A stretch of DNA of 64,000 bases from Nitrospirota bacterium. GTDB taxonomy: Bacteria; Nitrospirota; Nitrospiria; Nitrospirales; NS-4. Position numbers and translations under genes: made by a program. The stretch lies in assembly GCA_005877615.1 (NCBI GenBank), contig VBOD01000108.1, forward strand, positions 18,750 through 82,749, written 5' to 3'. Numbering within the stretch: position 1 is the first letter of the stretch; the number at the start of each line of letters is the position of its first letter. The notes below the pieces were generated by a model that saw only the letters and a program-made list of their open reading frames with translations, searched no databases and had not been told where the DNA came from. Shown piece after piece: positions 5,713 to 59,890 of the stretch.

Positions 5713-8700
5713 TTACAGAACGACCGGCACCGCCTGCCCCAGACGGAGGAAGATGACTTTGAACCCGGCGGGACAGTGACCCAACGCGTGGCGGACCGCC
5801 TCGGTGTAGATCCGGGCTTGCTCCCGGTAGGCCTCGGCCCGTTCCGCCACGTCAACCTCGGTAACGCGGTCAGTCTTGTAATCCGCCAGCCACACCGTGC
5901 CGTCCCTCTTATAAATGAGGTCGATGCGCCCTTCCATTAGAGCGGGAGAGGGCCCCGCTGACGCCCCTCCCGCACCCACTAGAGTGAGAGGGGGCCCCGG
6001 CCACGGCATGAGGAAGGGGACTTCGCGGCCGAGAATCGTGGCCTCTTTCAATTCGCCGTAGGCGTCGGAGCGCGCAAAGGCCTGCAGCACCTCACGGGCC
6101 TCTGCGAGAATCTCGTCACGATTCCCTTTGAACTCGTCCGGGAGCCAGCGTGCGGCGCGGCGATCTAATTGTTCAAGCAACACTTCAACCGTATCGCGAT
6201 AACTCCAGTCCTCTAGCGCTCTATGGACAAGGCCGCCGATGGCCGAAGCCAGCGTCGGGGAAGTTGTTGAAGTCGGCCCTTGGGGAGCGCCTTCGAGTGG
6301 GTGCGGGAGGGATGATGGTGTCAGGTAGAGGGATCGCTGGCGGCACTGCGACCACCGATCCTCACGGGCGCGCCAGCGGGCCTCAAACCCCGTGAGCTCG
6401 CGACGCGGCGCGGCGTCCTTCTTCTTCCGTCCTCCCCCGGCTCGCTTGCCGACGCCGGCGGGAATGACTGTCTTCGAGATGAGGTCGTCTGCAAGAGTAG
6501 GAGGGGGCCCCGCAGACACCCCTCCCACACCCACCTCCTCCTTGAGCAAGGCCAGGAAATTGCCCGGACTCTGCCGTCGCGTCAGCGCGCCCGAGAGCAC
6601 GAGCCGCTCCTTCGCGCGTGTCATCCCCACGTAGAGCAAGCGCCGCCGCTCGGCCTCGAGACGCGCCTCCAGCTTCTCCGCCACGTACGCCCCGCCCAGC
6701 GTGCAGCGCTCGCCCAGCCGCAGGCCCAAGACTCCCGTGGACCAATCCTGCTGGACTTGGATCGGCTCGTAGGGAGGCTTGGTGCCGGCATGCAACCCGA
6801 CCAGAATGACGATCGGGAACTCCAGCCCTTTGGCCTTGTGGACGCTCATGATCCGCACCGCCTCGCGGGATGTCTCCTCCGCCAGTCCGCTCTCGGACTC
6901 GTCCGGAGGGTCGGCGAGACGCGCTTTCAGCAGCTCCACGAAGCCGGCAAGCGTCATGCCGGGCTGATCCACGAGACCGTCGGCGAGCGCCCGCACCTTC
7001 CAGAGGTTCGCGACCGCCTGCTCGCCGTGCAAGGACGCCGCCGCCAGCTCCAGCAGGGGTAGCCGCTCGAAGATCAAGTCCAGCGCGTCCGGCAGCGGGC
7101 GCAGCGGGCAGTCCCGCTGCAGGGACGCGAGCGCCGCGTACAGCCGGCGTAGGTGACCGGCCTTGGGATGCGAGTCCAGACCGGACGGCCCCGTGCCGCG
7201 ATAATCCAGCGGCCCCAGCGCGACGAGGTCCATGATCTCCCGATCGGTCAGCGCGCCCACGGCCGAACGCAGCAGTCCCAACAGCGCGACCTGATCATGC
7301 GGATTCTGAACGCAGCACACGAGGTTGACGAGGTCAATCACCTCCTGCCGCTGGTAGAAATGTCGCTCCCCCTCCGCCACGTACGGCAGGCCGTGCCGGC
7401 GCAAGGCGCCCAGATACTCCCAGCTTTGCGTGAACGTCCGAAACAGCAGCGCCACATCCCCCGGCTCGACCGGACGGCGCCGTCCGTCCCGCTCGATCAG
7501 CACGTCCTGCCCGATGACCTCATGCTTCAGCCACCGCGCGACGGCTTCCGCTTCGGCCTCGACGCCTTCCTCGGCGCTGAGCGAAGCCCGCTCCTCATCG
7601 CGCGACGAGGATGCCACCAGCCGAAGCTCGACGCCCTGTGTCTGGGCGCCGGTCTTGCGGTCGGGGTCCGGCTCCAGGGGATCGTAGCGCGGCTGGAGGC
7701 CCGGGCGCTCGCGGATCAATCGCTCGAAGACCTGGTTGACGGCCATGAGGATCGTGCCATGACTGCGGAAATTCCGGGTGAGGGTGAGCGGCAGGCCGTC
7801 CTGGTCCTCCACCATCTGGCGGACGCGCTGGAACGCCTCGATATCAGCGCGACGGAACGCGAAGATCGACTGCTTGGGATCGCCGACGATGAACAGCTTG
7901 CCGGGATGCAGGCGTACGTTTGGCCAGGCCTCGGCCAGTCTGTCCTCATGCTCGGCCAGGAAGAGGAGGATCTCGTACTGAACCGGATCGGTATCCTGAA
8001 ACTCATCCACGAGGATGGCCTTGAACAGGCGCTTCAGCCGCGCCCGGACCTGCGGGTGGGTCTTCAGCAGGTCGCGGGCGCGGGCCAGGAGGCCGTCGAA
8101 CCGGACGTAGCCCGCATCGAGAAACCGTTGCCGGCACTGCGCGGCGAACGGCTCCAGCAGCCCGAGCAGGTCGCGGAAGAAGGCGTGATCGCTCGCCAGC
8201 ACCGCCTTGGCGGTCCTGACCAGATTGGCGGCGTCCTCAAACTCTTCCTCGCTCCAGCCGGCCGGAGGCTTCGCGCCTCCGTCCTTCTGCTCCAACAGCG
8301 TCCGCAGCTCCGCATCCAGTTCCGTAATGCCCGCAGGGCCGCCGCTGAGCACGCGGCCGAACAGACGGTCTGCGGCAGCCAGCAGCGCTTCGATTTGACG
8401 CGGCTTCTTCCCTCCCTCGCGGGAGGCCGACAAGAGCTCCCCTGCCCGCTGCTGCTTGCGTTCAAGCCAGGACCGGAGCGTCGGCGCGAGCCCGCCGCCG
8501 ACCTGGTCTTTGAGCGAATCGAGCGGGATGAGGTCATTGACCAGGGCCTTGGCGAACAACTCCAGCCCGGCCAGGTCCATGCCGCGCAGCACCCGTTTCC
8601 ACCGCTCCTGCCGGGGACAGGTGCCGCCGAGCTCGCCGTCCAGCCACTCACGCCACTCGCGCGTGAAGAAGTCGTCGAAGACGAACTCCTCATCAGGCGT

Positions 8701-9159
8701 GAACCGGGGATCCACGCCCGCTTCCAGGGGATAGAGGCGCAGGAGGTGCGCGGCGAAACTATGAATGGTCCCGATCTGGCTGTTCTCGAGCTCGCCCAGC
8801 GCCGCCTCGACCCGGCCCCGCAGCTCGTCGGTGGAGAGGCGATAGCGCGTGCGCAGGTCGGCGGCGGACAGGCGGTAGCGATCCCACAGCTCGCGGGCCG
8901 CCGGGGAGTCGTCCGGCGCCAGGACGCACTCCAGGCATTCCCGCAGGCGGATCTTGATCTCGTTGGCGGCCTTGTTCATGAACGTGAGCGCGACGACCTG
9001 CGACAGCGGCACCGCCTCGGGCGATTTGACGAGCAGGTGCACCAGGCGCGTGATCAGCAAGGTCGTCTTGCCGGTGCCCGCGCTGGCCGTCACCACCACG
9101 TTCCGATCGAAGGTCGTGGCGGCAAGAACCCGCGCCTGCTCGTCCCGTATCGCGGTCAC
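5713..9159 (-). CDS. addA: ATP-dependent helicase/nuclease subunit A (UvrD/Rep helicase + C-terminal PD-(D/E)XK nuclease)
   Basis: Walker A ASAGTGKTTLL. Helicase motifs ILVDEFQDTDPVQ, FIVGDPKQSIFAFRRAD and SVHKAKGLEFP...LLYVGMTRAKERL. Nuclease motif GRIDLIY...LADYKTD. Confidence 0.85.
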   Translation of the reverse strand: MTAIRDEQARVLAATTFDRNVVVTASAGTGKTTLLITRLVHLLVKSPEAVPLSQVVALTFMNKAANEIKIRLRECLECVLAPDDSPAARELWDRYRLSAADLRTRYRLSTDELRGRVEAALGELENSQIGTIHSFAAHLLRLYPLEAGVDPRFTPDEEFVFDDFFTREWREWLDGELGGTCPRQERWKRVLRGMDLAGLELFAKALVNDLIPLDSLKDQVGGGLAPTLRSWLERKQQRAGELLSASREGGKKPRQIEALLAAADRLFGRVLSGGPAGITELDAELRTLLEQKDGGAKPPAGWSEEEFEDAANLVRTAKAVLASDHAFFRDLLGLLEPFAAQCRQRFLDAGYVRFDGLLARARDLLKTHPQVRARLKRLFKAILVDEFQDTDPVQYEILLFLAEHEDRLAEAWPNVRLHPGKLFIVGDPKQSIFAFRRADIEAFQRVRQMVEDQDGLPLTLTRNFRSHGTILMAVNQVFERLIRERPGLQPRYDPLEPDPDRKTGAQTQGVELRLVASSSRDEERASLSAEEGVEAEAEAVARWLKHEVIGQDVLIERDGRRRPVEPGDVALLFRTFTQSWEYLGALRRHGLPYVAEGERHFYQRQEVIDLVNLVCCVQNPHDQVALLGLLRSAVGALTDREIMDLVALGPLDYRGTGPSGLDSHPKAGHLRRLYAALASLQRDCPLRPLPDALDLIFERLPLLELAAASLHGEQAVANLWKVRALADGLVDQPGMTLAGFVELLKARLADPPDESESGLAEETSREAVRIMSVHKAKGLEFPIVILVGLHAGTKPPYEPIQVQQDWSTGVLGLRLGERCTLGGAYVAEKLEARLEAERRRLLYVGMTRAKERLVLSGALTRRQSPGNFLALLKEEVGVGGVSAGPPPTLADDLISKTVIPAGVGKRAGGGRKKKDAAPRRELTGFEARWRAREDRWSQCRQRSLYLTPSSLPHPLEGAPQGPTSTTSPTLASAIGGLVHRALEDWSYRDTVEVLLEQLDRRAARWLPDEFKGNRDEILAEAREVLQAFARSDAYGELKEATILGREVPFLMPWPGPPLTLVGAGGASAGPSPALMEGRIDLIYKRDGTVWLADYKTDRVTEVDVAERAEAYREQARIYTEAVRHALGHCPAGFKVIFLRLGQAVPVVL
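5939..5997 (-). repeat. In-frame GC-rich palindromic repeat element, 1.5 units, inside the addA nuclease domain
   Basis: Core at 5944-5979; on the minus strand it reads GTGGGTGCGGGAGGGGCGTCAGCGGGGCCCTCTCCC. An extra half unit GAGAGGGGGCCCC lies at 5985-5997. Translated as PGPPLTLVGAGGASAGPSPAL. Confidence 0.8.
6494..6534 (-). repeat. In-frame GC-rich palindromic repeat element inside addA
   Basis: Core at 6499-6534; on the minus strand it reads GTGGGTGTGGGAGGGGTGTCTGCGGGGCCCCCTCCT. Translated as VGVGGVSAGPPP. Confidence 0.8.
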
Positions 9160-9163
9160 GGCG

Positions 9164-12100
9164 TCACCTCCCTCCGCCTGCTCGTTGCTGCCGGAGGTCC
9201 TCCAAGATTCGTTTCGCTACGTTGTCCCGCTGCCGCCACTTGGTCGGATGATGGGTCCGGCGGCAGGCCGGGGAAAACTCACAATAGTCGCAGTACTCGC
9301 CGGGCAGGATAAAGAAGCGCCCGTGCTGCACCCCCTCGAGGATCACGCGCACGGTCCCCTCCCCGCAGACCGCCGCGAGCCTCGTCCGCACCACCGGCCC
9401 GTTCGGCCAGTACGGGGCAAGGAAATAGAAGGCCGCCTCGTCCGGCACGGCCGGCTCCTCCTTTAAGACGCCGGTGGCGGCCAGCAAGTACAGCGGCGGC
9501 TGCAGGCGCTTCCCTCTGAGGGCCGCCGTCGCCAGATCGCGGTCTTCCAGTTTGGGCCCGCCCGACTCCGTGTACTTGTAGTCCACGATGCGGACATGGG
9601 CCTGCCCGTTCTCCCGACGCACATCCACCCGATCGAGGCGGCCGCGGATCGGCACGTGGCGCTGGGTGTCCGGCAACGTCGCGCCGAACGAGCCGGTCAC
9701 GGCCACCTCGAACAAGAGCGGACGGTAGCCGGACGCCCGCAGCTCCTGGAGGTCGTTCTCGATGAACGTCCGGACGAGGCGAGTGAGGTCTTCCTTGACC
9801 AGAGACCAGAGCAAGGGATAGCCGACGGGTTCGGTGGCTTCGAAATGGGTGAAGGCTTCGTCGGCAGCCGCACCCAGCCAGGCGTCGATGTCGGAGGAGG
9901 TCACCTGATCCGGAGCGACCTTGCGTTCAGTCAGCCGCTGGTAGAACAGTCGGAGGATGGCGTGGCACAGGGTGCCGCGGGCCCGCGCGTCCGGCACGAG
10001 GACGGAATCGGGCGTCTCCAGCGGCTCGAGCCGCAGGACTTTTTCGGCAAAATACTTGAAGGGACACTGCGCGTAGCGTTCCAGGGCCGTGGGCGAGACT
10101 CCGTGCCGCTCCAACATCCGCCAGTGGGCGCGGGCGACTCCGACCATGCCGTCATGGGGCGTCAGCGCCGGCTTCATCGAGTCAAGGGAGGCGACCGCCG
10201 CCAGCCCGTGCGCGAACAGCTCGGGCGGCTGATGCAGCCGCAACACCGACGTGAGGCTGGACGACGCGCCCCCTTGCAGGATCATCAGCAGGCCCGCCTC
10301 GCGCGGCGTGAGGACGGCGTAGTCGGACGGCCGCTGGGCAAACGGCCGCTCCGTCCACCGTAACGTCGGGCGACGCGTGATCCGGAGCTCGCTCTCGCCG
10401 ACGTGCGGCTTCAGCTCCGCCAGGTAGCCGGAGGGGACCATCATGCGGCCGTCGCGGTCGGCGCGTTGATGGCTGAGGACGACCCGCTCGCGGGCCGAGC
10501 GGAGCAGGAGCGCGACGAGCAGGCGCTCTTCCTCGAACCCCTCCAGCTTGCACGGGATCTTGAAGCCGAGATCGCGCGCCAGGACAACCCGGTCGGCATC
10601 GCGCAAGAACGGGTCCTCCTGGACGGAGCGCGGGAAGACCTTCTCATTGAGCCCGAGCACGAAGAGGGCGCGGAACGGCACGCCGCGGGCGTCCATCGCA
10701 TCCAGGACCTGGACTCCGTGGCGATCGCCAGCCGCGGACGGCACGCGGGCACGCTCTAGCACGCGGATGACATGCTCCACCCAGTCCGCCAGGGTGATGG
10801 CCTCGCTCAACTGCTCCAGCGACGCGACGGACTCCAGACACGCCTTGATGGCCGTCTGCACCCGGTCTGCGTGCGTGTCCGACGCGCCCGTCTCCCAGGC
10901 CGGCAGGTGGAAGTATTCCGGCAGCAGCTGTCGAAACTCTTCGGTGTAAGCATCCCATCCCGCCGTGCCGGGCAGCGCCGAGAGGGCCCGGTGCAGCCGC
11001 GCGACCAGGTCGAACAGCAGCGCCACCTGCTCGGCGGCGATGGCCGGCCGGGGCTGCTCCGCGTCATCGTCAACAGGCACGGCAAGGCCCGTCTTCGCGG
11101 CCCGCTCCAGGCGCAGCCAATCGCCCAGGCTGCCATCTTCCGGATTGCCCCGAACGATGCCCAGACGGCGGGTCGCCCAATCCCACAGGTCCGGGCGCAG
11201 ATTTGCATCAGCCGGACAGAGTTCTGCAACTCGGAAGGCGGGGGAAGTCAAAACCTCGATCACGAAAGCCCGCGGGAAGGCTTCCACCGGGAGGCGGAGA
11301 AACCGGATGATCGTCTTGACCAGCGGTTCATGGATCAGGGGCTCGCCCACCGGACAGGCGAAGGGAATCCGGTTGTCATCAAAGATGCGGCGGAGAGTCG
11401 GCATATAGGGGTCGAGCGTCCGCGCCACGACGCCGATCTCCAGCGGATCGCAGCGGGAGTCCTCGATCAGGCGGAGAATCTCCTTGGCCGCCGCCGCCAC
11501 CTCGTCCTCGACGCCGACGACGCTGACGATGCGGCAGGCCCCGCGAACAGCCGGTGCCATTTCATCAGCCAGCGATGACGTAGTGGGTGTGGGAGGGGCG
11601 CTTCGGGTGGGGCCCCCTCCCACTCTAATGGCCAACCCCTGGATGTACGTCTCAAAGAACCGCTGCGCGAACCGGTAGTCCGCGGATTCCGGTCGCACGG
11701 GGAAAAAGAGCGTGGTGGGGTACGCGCCCGCGACGGCCTTGAAGAAATCCAGTTGGCCTTGGGTCAAGTCGTAAAAGCCGTAGTAGCAGATGCGGGCCAT
11801 GCGGTTCAGGAACGCGGAGTCCGCCACGCGCTCCATGGCCAGGGCGGCCAGATCGTCCGGATCGGCGAGCCGCAGCGCCCGGTCCACTTCGAGAACGGCC
11901 GCGTACAGGCGAACCAGCGCGGCCAGGCGCGCCGGGTCGTCGGTCCTGAGCCGCCCCTCGTCCAGCGCCTGTAACACGGCGGACGGATCCACCCGCGCTT
12001 CCTTCAGGTCCTGGACCGTCGCCCAGAGACCGGTCCAGAGCCCCTGCATCCCCCGCCGGTCGCGGAATGCCTCCGCGCCGGGCACGCCGCGGTCCACGAG

Positions 12101-12391
12101 ATAGCGCAGCAGCTCTTCGCGGAAGGATCCGTTCACCAGGGCCGGCAGGATTTCTCCGCCCGCCTCCCGGAGCACGGTCATGGCCAGTTGATGGAACGTC
12201 AGCACGTGGCACTCAAGGAGCGCGCGCCCCTGCTCCACGGACAGGAGCCATTTCACGCGCCGCGCGAGCTGATGCGACGGGACCACGATGGCGAGCGGGC
12301 GGAGCGGATCGTCCTGTTTCAGCGAGTGGGATTCAGCGACGAGGGCGTTTTCGAGATCGGGATGGAACGGACCGGTGACGATCGAGAGCAT
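9164..12391 (-). CDS. addB: Helicase/nuclease subunit B (AddB-type, PD-(D/E)XK nuclease with Fe-S cluster cysteines)
   Basis: Lies 4 nt downstream of addA. C-terminal motif GRLDRVDV...IVDYKY and Cys cluster QCPFKY...CDYCEFSPAC. The size (1075 aa) is typical of AddB. Confidence 0.8.
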   Translation of the reverse strand: MLSIVTGPFHPDLENALVAESHSLKQDDPLRPLAIVVPSHQLARRVKWLLSVEQGRALLECHVLTFHQLAMTVLREAGGEILPALVNGSFREELLRYLVDRGVPGAEAFRDRRGMQGLWTGLWATVQDLKEARVDPSAVLQALDEGRLRTDDPARLAALVRLYAAVLEVDRALRLADPDDLAALAMERVADSAFLNRMARICYYGFYDLTQGQLDFFKAVAGAYPTTLFFPVRPESADYRFAQRFFETYIQGLAIRVGGGPTRSAPPTPTTSSLADEMAPAVRGACRIVSVVGVEDEVAAAAKEILRLIEDSRCDPLEIGVVARTLDPYMPTLRRIFDDNRIPFACPVGEPLIHEPLVKTIIRFLRLPVEAFPRAFVIEVLTSPAFRVAELCPADANLRPDLWDWATRRLGIVRGNPEDGSLGDWLRLERAAKTGLAVPVDDDAEQPRPAIAAEQVALLFDLVARLHRALSALPGTAGWDAYTEEFRQLLPEYFHLPAWETGASDTHADRVQTAIKACLESVASLEQLSEAITLADWVEHVIRVLERARVPSAAGDRHGVQVLDAMDARGVPFRALFVLGLNEKVFPRSVQEDPFLRDADRVVLARDLGFKIPCKLEGFEEERLLVALLLRSARERVVLSHQRADRDGRMMVPSGYLAELKPHVGESELRITRRPTLRWTERPFAQRPSDYAVLTPREAGLLMILQGGASSSLTSVLRLHQPPELFAHGLAAVASLDSMKPALTPHDGMVGVARAHWRMLERHGVSPTALERYAQCPFKYFAEKVLRLEPLETPDSVLVPDARARGTLCHAILRLFYQRLTERKVAPDQVTSSDIDAWLGAAADEAFTHFEATEPVGYPLLWSLVKEDLTRLVRTFIENDLQELRASGYRPLLFEVAVTGSFGATLPDTQRHVPIRGRLDRVDVRRENGQAHVRIVDYKYTESGGPKLEDRDLATAALRGKRLQPPLYLLAATGVLKEEPAVPDEAAFYFLAPYWPNGPVVRTRLAAVCGEGTVRVILEGVQHGRFFILPGEYCDYCEFSPACRRTHHPTKWRQRDNVAKRILEDLRQQRAGGGR
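11583..11627 (+). repeat. In-frame GC-rich palindromic repeat element inside addB, opposite orientation to the other copies
   Basis: Core at 11583-11621; on the plus strand it reads GTGGGTGTGGGAGGGGCGCTTCGGGTGGGGCCCCCTCCC. The gene reads the complementary strand as VGGGPTRSAPPTPT. Confidence 0.8.
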
Positions 12392-12513
12392 GACGGAAGT
12401 AGCCTAACGGAAAACCGAGAGGGGCACAAGAACGGATGTCACCTTTTGCACGCTGCCGTGTCTCATTGACAAGGAAAACAGTCCAGCATACTCTTTCCAA
12501 ACACGGATTCACG

Positions 12514-13107
12514 ATGGACCAGGAACTCGTTCAGTATCTCGATAGCCGATTCCAATCGGTTACCAGGCAATTCCAAGAGTTGCGGGGGGAGATGAGTGAA
12601 CAGCTCCAAGGGTTGCGCGGCGGGACGACCGAGGGGTTCCAAGGGTTGCGTGATGAGACGACTGCGGGGCTCCAAGAGTTGCGTGGCGAAATGACCGCGG
12701 GGTTCCAAGAATTGCGCGGCGAGATGACCGCAGGGCTCCAAGGGTTACGCGGGGAGATGACTGAGGCGCTCCAGGGGTTGCGCGGCGAGATGACCGCGGG
12801 GTTCCAAGGGTTACGCGGGGAGATGACTGAGGAACTCCAAGAGTTGCAGGGGGAGATGACCGCGGGGCTGGAAGAGGTCAAGCGGCACTCCGGCGTGCTG
12901 GTAGAAGGCCTCCGGCACGAGCTTCAGCTCGTGGCCGAAGGCTTCGCCATGCACGTCCAAGTTCAGCACGTGCAGGAACGGGAATACCACGACCGGCAGC
13001 ATCAGGAGACCCGCGCGCTCATCCGATCACTCTATGATGAGCTCCGGCAGCAGCACGACCACCTCCGCCAGCGTGTCGAGAACCTCGAACAGAAGAGACA
13101 GAACTAG
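12514..13107 (+). CDS. Repeat protein: nine tandem 11-residue units (LRGEMTAGxQG) followed by a His/Gln-rich coiled-coil tail
   Basis: ATG at 12514 within ORF 12436..13107. TTGACA (12466-12471), 17 nt, TACTCT lie upstream. The periodic sequence is visible in both DNA and protein. Confidence 0.7.
   Translation: MDQELVQYLDSRFQSVTRQFQELRGEMSEQLQGLRGGTTEGFQGLRDETTAGLQELRGEMTAGFQELRGEMTAGLQGLRGEMTEALQGLRGEMTAGFQGLRGEMTEELQELQGEMTAGLEEVKRHSGVLVEGLRHELQLVAEGFAMHVQVQHVQEREYHDRQHQETRALIRSLYDELRQQHDHLRQRVENLEQKRQN
12580..12876 (+). repeat. Tandem 33-nt coding repeat, 9 units
   Basis: Units TTGCG(C/G)GG(C/G)GAGATGAC(C/T)GCGGGG(T/C)TCCAAG(G/A)G with few substitutions. They encode LRGEMSEQLQG, LRGGTTEGFQG, LRDETTAGLQE, LRGEMTAGFQE, LRGEMTAGLQG, LRGEMTEALQG, LRGEMTAGFQG, LRGEMTEELQE and LQGEMTAGLEE. 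Confidence 0.9.
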
Positions 13108-34632: not shown

Positions 34633-35088
34633 CTACTTCTTCGCTGTGGCCTGTTGCGCCCGCACGTGCGCGACGGCGGCCCGCAGCCCCAGCGCATAGC
34701 TGTCAGGGCCGAACCCTGAGATCTGCCCGACCGCCACGCCGGCGATGTAGGAATGCTGCCGGAACTCCTCGCGCCGATAGAGATTGGAGAGGTGCACCTC
34801 GACGGTCGGCATGCCGACCGCCGCGATCGCGTCGCGCAGGGCGATGCTCGTGTGGGTGTACGCGCCGGGATTGATCACCAGCGCTTCGTACTGGCCCGCC
34901 GCTTTCTGAACCCACGCCACCAGATCGCCCTCGTCATTGGACTGATGGATCGTGAGGCCCGCTCCCAGCTCCTTCGCCAGCGCGTGCAGGTCGCGGTTGA
35001 TCCCGTCCAGCGTGACCGCCCCGTAGATGTGGGTTTCGCGGGAGCCCAGCAGGTTGAGGTTCGGCCCATGGAGGACCAGGATCTTCAC
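34633..35088 (-). CDS. aroQ: 3-dehydroquinate dehydratase, type II
   Basis: [35 protein letters not shown] and VEVHLSN. Confidence 0.95.
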
Positions 35089-35906
35089 TTCCGGCGACGC
35101 TCCCGGATCACGGCGAGCCAGCCTTCCAGCCGGCGGATACGGGTCTTGCGCTTGGCCTGGTCCGAGGTCTCCTGTGATGCCTTCGCCGGGGCCTGACTGG
35201 CTCCCGCTCCTTCTTCCGCGAGCGCCATGATCTTCTCGTGCAACCGGCGATTGTCGGGCTCCTTGGCGGCAAGGCGGCGATAGACCTCCAAGCCTTTCTC
35301 ACGGTGCCCCTGCGAGATGTAGAGCTCGGCCAGGGTCTCGCTATCGGTGATGCCCCCGGGACCGTGACCGTACATGGCCAGCGAGAGCCCTTCTGCGGCA
35401 GCATCACTCGCGACGTGGTCCGCAACCGGGGACTTTGCCATGCGCACGGTCGGATGCATCTCTTTGGCCTTCGCGTCCGCCGCTTTGGCAGCCTCGTGCG
35501 TCTCGGCGTGCGTGGCCTTCTTGGCGTGGGCCGCCTTGGCTCCGCCGCCCTGCAATTCCTCGAGCAGATGGCCCATCTCACGGTCCTTGGGATTGGCGTG
35601 CAGGATGGTCTCGCAGGCCTTGATCGCCAACGCCGTATCCCCGAGCTCGTGATACACCTGCGCGAGCTTCCGGAAAGCGGCGAAGTTATCCGGCGCGGCC
35701 TTGATCACCTGCTCCAGCTCCACACGGGCCAGCGCAAGGTCCCCGGAGGTGCAATAGACTTCGCCCAGCATGACCCGGGCGCTGACCATCTTCGGGAACT
35801 TCTTCAGCCCCTGCTGGAGCACCTCAATGGCCTTGCCAAACTGTCCCGCGTCGACGAGTTCCTTGGCATGAGCCATGAAAGCGTGGGATGCTGATTCGCT
35901 TGCCAT
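35085..35906 (-). CDS. TPR repeat protein with His/Lys/Ala-rich linker and basic C-terminus
   Basis: Several 34-residue TPR-like units ([54 protein letters not shown]). Confidence 0.7.
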
Positions 35907-35957: not shown

Positions 35958-37232
35958 CTACGGAAGAATGAGCACCGCGTCAAGAATTCGATGCGCCAGC
36001 TCATGCTTGGACATGAGCGGCAATGCCTCACAACGGCCCGCACGGTCCAGCAAGGTCGCGCGGTTCGTGTCCGTGCCGAACCCGGCTCCGGGCTCTGAGA
36101 CGTCGTTGGCGACGATCAGGTCCAGCGCCTTGTCGAGCAGCTTGCCTCTGGCGCGCGCGACCAGATCGCCCGTCTCGGCCGCGAACCCGACCACGAGCTG
36201 CCCGGCCCGTCGCGGCGGCAGGTCCTTCAAAATGTCCTTGGTCGGCTCCAGTGCCAGCGTCCGCACGTCGCGGCCTTTCGGTACCTTGCCCTGGGCCGGG
36301 CGCGCCGGCCGGAAATCGGCGACCGCCGCCGCCATGATCAGCACATCGGTGCCTGGGAAACGGGTGACGACTTCTTTACGCATCTCCTCGGACGTGACCA
36401 CCGAGACGTACGCGACGTTGGGAACGGGCGCAAGACTGGTCGGCCCCGCGACCAGGACGACGTCAGCGCCGCGATCCCGTGCGGCTTCCGCCAGCGCCCA
36501 GCCCATCTTCCCGGACGAGCGGTTCGACAGGAACCGCACCGGATCGAGCGGTTCCTGCGTGGGCCCGGCCGTGATGAGGACCCGCCGGCCGCGAAAGTCC
36601 TTGGCGCAGAGAGCCCCGAAGATCGCCGATAGGATGGCGTCCTCCTCGGGAAAGCGCCCCTGGCCGACCCGGCCCGACGCCAACGGCCCGACCTCCGGCT
36701 CCAGCACGGTGACCCCGCGCTGACGGAGCGTCCGCACGTTGGCGCAGACCGCCGGGTGGGTCCACATGCCGCCGTCCATGGCGGGAACCACCACCACCGG
36801 GCACTCCGCCGCAAGCACCAGCGTCGTGAGGAGATCGTCGGCGAGGCCATGCGCCAGCTTGGCGACGCAGTGAGCCGAGGCCGGCGCGATCGCGATCAGA
36901 TCGGCTCCGTCCGCGAGCGCAAGGTGCGGCATGACATTCACAGCGGGAGGGGGCCCCGCGGAACGCGCCCCTCCCGCACCCACCTCTCCGCTCGACGACG
37001 GAAACAGATCGGTGCCGACGGGGTGGCCCGTGAGCGCCTCAAAGGTCAGCGGTGCGACGAAGCGCTGCGCGGTGTGGGTCATGACCACGCGCACCGTCGC
37101 TCCTTCGGTCATCAGGCGGCGCGCCAGCGACGCCGCCTTGTAGGCGGCGATGCTGCCGGTCACTCCGAGCACGATGGTCTTCCCCGCCAAGCGCGCGGCA
37201 GGCGCGAGGGGGGTGCGTTTAGTCGTCTTCAC
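35958..37232 (-). CDS. coaBC: Bifunctional phosphopantothenoylcysteine decarboxylase / phosphopantothenate--cysteine ligase
   Basis: N-terminal flavoprotein domain (IVLGVTGSIAAYKA, PAMDGGMW) and C-terminal CoaB domain (ITAGPTQEPLDPVRFLSNRSSGKMG, AAAVADFRP). Confidence 0.9.
   Translation of the reverse strand: MKTTKRTPLAPAARLAGKTIVLGVTGSIAAYKAASLARRLMTEGATVRVVMTHTAQRFVAPLTFEALTGHPVGTDLFPSSSGEVGAGGARSAGPPPAVNVMPHLALADGADLIAIAPASAHCVAKLAHGLADDLLTTLVLAAECPVVVVPAMDGGMWTHPAVCANVRTLRQRGVTVLEPEVGPLASGRVGQGRFPEEDAILSAIFGALCAKDFRGRRVLITAGPTQEPLDPVRFLSNRSSGKMGWALAEAARDRGADVVLVAGPTSLAPVPNVAYVSVVTSEEMRKEVVTRFPGTDVLIMAAAVADFRPARPAQGKVPKGRDVRTLALEPTKDILKDLPPRRAGQLVVGFAAETGDLVARARGKLLDKALDLIVANDVSEPGAGFGTDTNRATLLDRAGRCEALPLMSKHELAHRILDAVLILP
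36942..36983 (-). repeat. In-frame GC-rich palindromic repeat element inside the coaBC flavoprotein domain
   Basis: Core at 36945-36983; on the minus strand it reads GTGGGTGCGGGAGGGGCGCGTTCCGCGGGGCCCCCTCCC. Translated as VGAGGARSAGPPP. Confidence 0.8.
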
Positions 37233-59814: not shown

Positions 59815-59890
59815 TGGAGCCGGCGAGTGGAATCGAACCACCGACCTGCGGTTTACGAAACCGCTGCTCTGCCAACTGAGCTACGCCGGC
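59815..59890 (-). tRNA. tRNA-Thr (anticodon CGT), CCA encoded
   Basis: The minus strand reads GCCGGCGTAGCTCAGTTGGCAGAGCAGCGGTTTCGTAAACCGCAGGTCGGTGGTTCGATTCCACTCGCCGGCTCCA. It folds by hand into a 7/4/5/5 cloverleaf with anticodon loop TTCGTAA. Confidence 0.9.

Follow-up and report, generated by a model that had tools for sequence, protein, structure and literature searches.

How does one short GC-rich sequence come to lie in frame, and in either orientation, inside unrelated conserved genes of a bacterium? This question is raised by a 64-kb stretch of Nitrospirota DNA (the window; positions are counted from its first letter), in which addA, addB and coaBC all carry nearly the same hairpin-forming element. 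An earlier note, made from the window alone, had proposed a nucleotide-level palindromic family whose members, in either orientation, sit in frame within conserved genes of unrelated function, and this view is borne out by more than 200 copies, by presence/absence of the element in orthologues and by covariation of its stem. The window copies are probably members of a repetitive extragenic palindrome (REP)-type repeat family of Nitrospirales. Elements of this kind have been described before in other bacteria, so that the family is new in sequence and not in principle. As the note had supposed, the searchable literature yielded no paper describing this family in Nitrospirota.

Four full and two partial copies are present in the window, and at the four loci named in the note the sequence returns exactly the quoted bases with correct translations. 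The host open reading frames (ORFs) are intact and their identities and domains are confirmed by Pfam: addA (5713..9159, minus strand; 1148 aa) encodes UvrD helicase and PD-(D/E)XK nuclease domains and harbors three element sites, addB (9164..12391, minus strand; 1075 aa) encodes ADDB_N and PD-(D/E)XK domains, and coaBC (35958..37232, minus strand; 424 aa) encodes Flavoprotein and DFP domains. The first full copy, addA1 (5934..5979, minus strand), consists of a 36-nt core of the C-G variant (5944-5979) followed by the tail GCTCTAATGG (5934-5943), and is translated as VGAGGASAGPSPAL(M) within the PD-(D/E)XK domain of AddA, just before GRIDLIY. Directly upstream lies a partial copy comprising only the 3′ arm and tail (5980..5998, minus strand; GGGGCCCCCTCTCACTCTA), which forms a head-to-tail array of ~1.45 units with addA1; the 19-nt imperfect direct repeat that the note had seen here is real (5980-5998 versus 5941-5959, 16/19 identical). 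The second full copy, addA2 (6493..6534, minus strand; core 6499-6534, 36 nt, T-A variant; tail ACTCTT), encodes VGVGGVSAGPPPTL in an AddA linker. A truncated copy of opposite orientation, which the list of four loci had missed, retains only the 5′ arm (6297..6312, plus strand; GTGGGTGCGGGAGGGA) and encodes ..LPHPLEGA.. in AddA. The addB copy (11583..11631, plus strand; core 11583-11621, 39 nt, T-A variant; tail ACTCTAATGG) is antisense to its gene and is translated as IRVGGGPTRSAPPTPT, and the coaBC copy (36933..36983, minus strand; core 36945-36983, 39 nt, C-G variant; tail GCTGTGAATGTC) encodes VGAGGARSAGPPPAVNV, which falls in the CoaC (flavoprotein) domain.

The number of copies exceeds what base composition would produce. 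The 5′ 16-mer GTGGGTGYGGGAGGGG was found five times in the window at up to two mismatches compared to 0.29 expected, a count that was not attained in any of 100 shuffles preserving dinucleotide composition. Taken by itself, the 3′ 12-mer lacks significance (five versus 2.64 expected; 15 of 100 shuffles gave at least five); its spacing from the 5′ arm is always fixed.

Pattern scans for further copies returned at least 112 stretches from genomes, with one genome per species, and at least 115 further stretches from metagenomes. Altogether, a relaxed pattern detects at least 230 copies in 1.63 Mb of retrieved DNA, and six metagenome-assembled genomes (MAGs) tallied by hand carry at least 6–15 copies each. 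Among the matches listed, all labelled genomes with a complete element are MAGs assigned to Nitrospirales, Nitrospirae or Nitrospiraceae from soil, groundwater and lakes, except one (L109). The L109 contig carries a typical copy and sits in an “Acidobacteriota” bin; it is probably mis-binned, because one co-assembly yielded both this bin and a Nitrospirales bin. Matches in Streptomyces and other phyla fit only the loose pattern, lack the CCTCCC arm and were treated as chance. Soil metagenome scaffolds encode a CoaBC identical to that of the window. The earlier statement that all copies measure 36 or 39 nt holds within the window; across the family these core lengths predominate, and minorities of 38, 40, 41 and 42 nt occur as well.

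Where the copies lie was determined by scoring the flanks of 188 non-redundant sites with a codon-usage log-odds model trained on the window genes. At 88 of the 188 sites (47%) the element lies within an open frame whose coding signal continues, in phase, on either side of it. In 60 of these 88 genic copies the G-rich strand is the sense strand and reads VG[AV]GGA..AGPPP; the 28 antisense copies mostly read (I/V)xVGGGP..APP(A/T)PT. Of the remaining 100 sites, gene 3′ ends account for ~27, gene 5′ ends for ~15 and non-coding DNA for 18; the others are unclear or belong to tandem arrays. Besides the window genes, Pfam-confirmed hosts include ValS, PriA, a MacB/FtsX permease, CarA, MurF, MurG, MazG, a methylpurine DNA glycosylase (MPG), PurL, an SLT transglycosylase, ThiC (with two copies) and TruB, among others. 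AddA, with three element sites of its own, may represent a hot spot. Among the genic copies, 80/88 have a core divisible by three, and so do 80/100 of the others (Fisher p = 0.04). Because this difference is weak, such lengths are for the most part a built-in property of the two main variants, to which filtering within genes adds only mildly. On one retrieved contig (L067, 3-7661), four sense copies lie in frame within one uninterrupted ORF of more than 2553 aa.

Could the similarity reflect a selected Gly/Ala/Pro peptide module, or convergence of GC-rich Gly/Pro codon runs, instead of a DNA element? A similar peptide occurs in three window proteins, and all window inserts are in frame. This explanation is contradicted by the intergenic and antisense copies: identical DNA in both orientations gives rise to unrelated peptides, and copies are also located at gene ends and between genes, e.g., right after a tRNA CCA end. 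Moreover, nucleotide identity extends to silent positions, the stem covaries (see below), the window count of five compares with 0.29 expected, and the inserts are predicted to be disordered. We regard a protein-level origin as extremely improbable.

The limits of the element were defined by information content over 95 non-redundant copies. The 5′ boundary is sharp at the first G of a GTGG tetranucleotide, which is present in 94 of the 95 copies, and the hairpin stem begins two nucleotides later, at G7. On the other side, a tail with the consensus RCTNNR(ATGG) is conserved after the 3′ arm and fades at +10. Thus, the conserved unit, with its GTGG edge and its tail, is longer than the 36/39 nt originally taken as the full unit. 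Likewise, the stem is not limited to the 8 bp first proposed: a basal GC stem of 10 bp (G-Y-GGGAGGGG paired with CCCCTCCC-R-C) is followed, past a GGGC bulge of 4 nt, by an inner stem of 2–4 bp and a loop of 3–4 nt. A scan of the window at the gathering threshold returned no Rfam family for the element, only a tRNA-Thr.

In an alignment of 88 paralogous copies, 97% of all stem cells show standard pairing (98% in the basal and 93.5% in the inner stem), compared to 59–68% in slid controls. Pair 12-47 is C-G in 47 copies, U-A in 36, U-G in three and other in two, and each of the inner-stem pairs occurs as three to five standard pair types. The covariation score was reached by none of 500 shuffles, and RNAalifold independently recovers the 10-bp basal stem; as a caveat, the covariation at pair 12-47 could in part reflect descent from two founder subfamilies. 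For the window copies, the G-rich strand as RNA is predicted to fold into the hairpin with −27 to −31 kcal/mol, the C-rich strand as RNA with −16 to −27.5 kcal/mol, and the G-rich strand as single-stranded DNA (ssDNA) with −9 to −17 kcal/mol.

An expanded-loop subfamily, in which the apical loop is replaced by ~30 nt with an 8-bp hairpin of its own (ACCCGTTGC..GCAACGGGT; peptide ..ARVPVAPxNATGD..), occupies the same four sites in other lineages. Its carriers include L117 (3611-3679), P0009, P0013, P0027, P0029 and P0034 for CoaBC, P0129/130/141 and P0123/125 for AddA, and P0247 for AddB.

The earlier note had also called the repeats prone to form G-quadruplexes (G4s), and one may ask whether they are kept for the sake of such a structure, or of a switch between hairpin and G4, that serves the host, e.g., by modulating transcription, translation or recombination at the carrier genes. 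As a sequence pattern the description is accurate: GGG-TGY-GGG-A-GGGG-N7-11-GGGG is conserved, with a last loop of more than 7 nt in the 39- and 40-nt forms, and the G-rich strand fits G3+N1-7G3+N1G4N7-11G4. All four G tracts are (nearly) invariant, including the GGG of the head and the GGG of the bulge, which are unpaired in the hairpin. Stem variation is asymmetric as well, since ~30 G.U cells can be assigned to C-to-T changes in the 3′ arm because the G columns of the 5′ arm are invariant, and the sense strand is the G strand in 60/88 genic copies. However, the excised G-tract segment reaches only −8 to −13 kcal/mol when G4 folding is allowed, compared to −27 to −31 for the hairpin, which is thus predicted to be ~15–20 kcal/mol more stable, and allowing G4 folding never altered the minimum-energy structure. 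Furthermore, the C-rich arm equals the G tracts in conservation and the Y in loop 1 covaries with the R after the 3′ arm, which a G4 leaves unexplained, and the polymorphic, often lost sites argue against a needed host function per gene. Maintenance for G4 formation is therefore quite improbable.

Alignments of orthologues show that the element is polymorphic at its sites: empty sites were found for CoaBC and for two of the AddA sites, and AddB lacks the insert only in distant homologues. Among 120 CoaBC homologues, the distant ones and some close relatives are empty (..DLFAPDAG/MPHL.., with the slash marking the site), including P0017 at 89% identity; the DNA comparison of empty CoaBC alleles used the more distant L118 and L119. 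Other CoaBC orthologues carry the 36- or the 39-nt form, and partial elements consist of the 3′ arm only (412-aa alleles, L115) or the 5′ arm only (L116). In L117 the site is filled by the expanded-loop form with its nested 8-bp hairpin.

All three AddA sites are variable among orthologues. The addA2 site is empty in several relatives of 78% identity, expanded-loop alleles also occur there, and the gap of the empty allele L073 relative to the window is exactly 42 nt. At the 6297 site, relatives contain full or 1.4-unit antisense copies (full in L004, L127 and P0123/125/126/130/133). The addA1 insert is missing from homologues of ~35% identity (..PWNGQ/IMEGVIDL..), nearly deleted in P0121, doubled in P0131 and of the expanded-loop form in P0123 and P0125. 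L064 has the 3′ half alone, so that exactly one unit of 42 nt separates it from the window, which fits the “1.5 units” assigned to addA1. The interpretation of this locus as a partial tandem reduplication is thus supported, all the more as head-to-tail arrays that repeat every 42 or 45 nt are common among relatives. At the AddB site, close relatives are filled, with an expanded loop, a partial deletion or a different insert as variants, and homologues of 42% identity have no insert.

Clean filled/empty pairs with 90–95% identical flanks give net inserts of 39, 42, 45 and 46 nt. Because net insert sizes vary, the 3′ boundary has to be regarded as fuzzy. Numerous solo 3′ arms resemble microhomology deletions. 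Related lineages often carry different variants at one and the same site (36 versus 39 nt, T-A versus C-G, expanded loop), and comparison of these sequences suggests replacement rather than simple inheritance.

In one non-coding case, one or two copies directly follow an apparent tRNA 3′ end (..TTCGACTCCCACTCTCTTCCGCCA) in L226 and L011, while L135 is empty; the net insertion of 46 nt after this CCA end is no multiple of three. In P0244 and P0246 (AddB) and in P0142 (AddA nuclease site), a different insert, ..LSPQGGRGKGEG.. or ..RGEGEG.., is found at the same positions and may represent a second repeat family that uses the same hot spots.

AlphaFold2 models were built with homologue alignments for CoaBC and for a C-terminal fragment of AddA, and in both the inserts fall into low-confidence coil. 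The CoaBC model has a mean predicted local distance difference test (pLDDT) score of 84.8, and residues 77-99, which hold the insert, are below 50 and show no secondary structure. In the AddA fragment the nuclease core reaches a pLDDT of at least 90; the addA1 insert forms a coil between two strands (block-mean pLDDT 60–64), addA2 lies in a stretch below 50, and the blocks at the 6297 site average 67 and 49. According to these models, the inserts are predicted to add a floppy Gly/Ala/Pro loop to AddA and CoaBC.

To which known elements is this family related? REPs of the GT[AG]G type are defined by a GTAG or GTGG tetranucleotide 0–2 nt from the foot of the hairpin, a GC-rich basal stem of 7–20 bp, optionally a second stem past a bulge of 1–3 nt, and a loop of 2–5 nt (Quentin et al. 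2018, PMC6006769). The Nitrospirales element agrees with this “long-hairpin” definition, the sole departure being its bulge of 4 nt instead of 1–3 nt. Like GT[AG]G REPs, its cores measure 36–42 nt, with GTGG 2 nt before the foot of a GC-rich 10-bp stem followed by a bulge and a second short stem. The stem variants are compatible with G.U pairing, subfamilies carry alternative complementary stem residues, and some of the copies, of which at least 6–15 were counted per tallied MAG, sit at gene 3′ ends.

Residence in genes is likewise known from this class. ORFs of several phyla were reported to contain GT[AG]G REPs, and Opitutus terrae, with its GTGG-tagged GTAG-20 family, accounts for most of these cases; such intragenic REPs, which typically encode 20–30 residues, are in striking excess in genes for replication and repair (uvrABCD, recBCD, UvrD/Rep helicases) and in truB (Di Nocera et al. 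2013, PMC3733652). In line with this, the Nitrospirales copies in ORFs encode 12–30 extra residues, notably in RecBCD-class nucleases, UvrD-type helicases and TruB, and the hosts AddA, AddB, PriA, MPG and TruB repeat the pattern of repair genes and TruB described for other phyla. To our knowledge, this recurrence of REPs in TruB and in genes of recombination and repair has found no explanation. In contrast to GT[AG]G REPs, the element belongs to another sequence family in another phylum, Nitrospirota, and about half of the sampled sites are in-frame intragenic; with this 47% share it is not predominantly extragenic, as REPs are held to be, commonly a short way downstream of ORFs. In addition, it occurs as singletons and direct tandem arrays instead of inverted dimers, and a gene for a REP-associated tyrosine transposase (RAYT) flanked by the element was not found in the sample. 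Thus, what sets the family apart from classical REPs is its high in-frame fraction, its arrangement in tandem instead of inverted order, and the missing link to a RAYT.

The earlier note had drawn its analogy to Rickettsia palindromic elements (RPEs). The analogy is apt insofar as both are palindromic repeats that lie in frame in many unrelated, apparently functional ORFs, where they are tolerated as additional stretches of peptide, and are present or absent between relatives. RPEs differ in size (roughly 100–150 bp for RPE-1), in composition and in host, an AT-rich obligate intracellular lineage, and the two would not be expected to be related in sequence. Closer relatives are GT[AG]G-tagged REPs: RPE-1 insertions are longer than REP-size elements, and RPE-4 and RPE-6 have been equated with CGTC-tagged REPs, not with GT[AG]G ones (PMC3733652).

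How would such a unit spread? Copying has taken it, in either orientation, to hundreds of unrelated sites, and individual sites turn over: they may be empty, filled, expanded in tandem by 42 or 45 nt, reduced to a solo arm, apparently by microhomology deletion, or taken over by other subfamily variants. A target-site duplication (TSD), which the note had offered as an alternative for the addA repeat, was not detected: flanking direct repeats of 4, 5 and 6 nt were seen 16, 4 and 1 times compared to 12.1, 3.5 and 1.0 in shuffled controls. Two window copies are bracketed by TA; the idea of a TA duplication derived from them was dropped after this test gave no signal.

The lack of TSDs also bears on whether the element is a MITE (miniature inverted-repeat transposable element) of the DDE type, with terminal inverted repeats, a TSD and a transposase encoded by an insertion sequence (IS). 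Its arms are inverted repeats and the TA brackets of the two window copies would fit such an origin, but there is no TSD at 4, 5 or 6 nt, the element of 36–51 nt is far below the 70–300 bp quoted for bacterial MITEs (PMC3733652), and its ends are asymmetric, with a GTGG head and an RCTNNR tail. Because TSDs are missing, a DDE-type MITE is to be discarded as a virtually untenable explanation, and ssDNA transposition by an HUH/Y1 enzyme or a recombinational route fits the data.

As a REP-type element, the unit would disperse by copy-and-paste of the folded single strand without target duplication, mobilized in trans by a Y1 HUH (RAYT-like) enzyme by analogy to REPs. Features shared with REPIN-RAYT and IS200/IS605 Y1 HUH systems (REPINs being close inverted REP doublets) are the subterminal hairpin, the 5′ guide-like tetranucleotide, the lack of a TSD and an apparent short target preference beside one end. 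Insertion might show some preference for positions just 5′ of a ..RATGG-like sequence. The ATGG following addA1 is part of the conserved Met-Glu-Gly of AddA, and a tail-like motif is already present at 3/5 clean empty sites, as read by eye from alignments. For these two reasons the distal tail seems to be, at least in part, pre-existing target sequence that reflects a target preference. Since the head is itself GTGG, an insertion preference 5′ of RTGG would also lead to head-to-tail arrays. Selection would then purge genic copies that break the frame or encode a harmful peptide.

Several observations weigh against this REP-type explanation. The net sizes at clean pairs correspond to the core plus 0, 3, 6, 7 or 12 nt, which is untidy for precise cut-and-paste, and the hairpin model alone does not account for the invariant unpaired GGG of the head and of the bulge. 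A search of the window and 234 loci in six frames, by tblastn with E. coli RayT and an HxH...YxxNP/Q regular expression, detected no element-flanked RAYT gene in the 1.63 Mb of contigs that carry the element. The sole Y1/RAYT-like gene in this DNA (L182, 561-1377; HVHLVV...YVELNPVRAGLV) lies at a distance of 2.5 kb from an element-bearing AddA gene, and is bracketed by its own 22-nt inverted repeats, GAATCAGGGACAGATTTATTTT, which are unrelated to the hairpin element. Finally, REPINs were not seen among the sampled contigs, where copies are singletons, direct tandem arrays (42/45 nt) or distant from each other; in this sample, neither the partner enzyme that defines REPIN-RAYT systems nor their inverted doublet was found. 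In the one inverted pair that was inspected (L127, also L161), the members belong to distinct AddA sites separated by 218 nt.

These points raise the question of whether the family spreads without any dedicated transposase, by gene conversion, template switching at hairpin-stalled forks or microhomology-mediated insertion, much as proposed for the CGTC-type REPs, with which no enzyme is associated. Consistent with such a route are the lack of a linked RAYT in the sampled contigs and of a TSD signal, the variable net insert sizes and frequent microhomology deletions leaving solo 3′ arms, the different subfamily variants at one site across related lineages, and the tandem arrays of exact period. 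Yet gene conversion, able to replace residents, does not account for how hundreds of unrelated sites came to receive their initial copy with a sharp 5′ edge, and the GTGG head at RAYT-type spacing from the hairpin foot is most simply an enzyme recognition feature. Hence, we consider transposase-free spread unlikely.

Returning to the REP-type explanation, one version of it, possible but tentative, holds that the family is a REP lineage specialized for life inside genes and moved by something other than an element-flanked RAYT gene. The invariant unpaired G tracts would then be part of the recognition by the enzyme, or form a G4. Consistent with this, the 36/39-nt cores and the 42/45-nt periods are all multiples of three, both orientations are open and encode Gly/Ala/Pro loops predicted to be disordered, and the residents of AddA-type hot spots have repeatedly been replaced by other subfamily variants. 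The element also appears to land preferentially next to ..RATGG, in a high-GC3 genome (GC-rich at third codon positions) mostly an in-frame Met codon, which would automatically give the dominant reading frame.

The family extends in-frame “protein decoration” of the REP/RPE type to Nitrospirota, a phylum that includes important nitrite oxidizers, in a clade covered by MAGs only. Its many allele states constitute a rich natural data set on the arrival, expansion and decay of elements inside essential genes. In practice, inserts of 12–21 residues lead to spurious indels and length variation in conserved marker proteins, and the repeats are likely to break or confuse metagenome assemblies.

Three further features of the window were recorded besides the element. 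A 33-nt tandem repeat at 12572-12876 (~9.2 copies with 76% matches; a period of 99 nt is an alternative reading) seems to lie within an ORF at 12436-13107 (plus strand) and is unrelated to the hairpin element. The sole Rfam/ARAGORN match is the tRNA-Thr (CGT) at 59815-59890 (minus strand). The tetratricopeptide repeat (TPR) gene adjoining coaBC (~35085-35906, minus strand) is very variable in length among close relatives, with 273 aa in L001 and L002 (equal to the window ORF, 273 aa), 258 aa in L116 and 504 aa in L117, and appears broken in L115.

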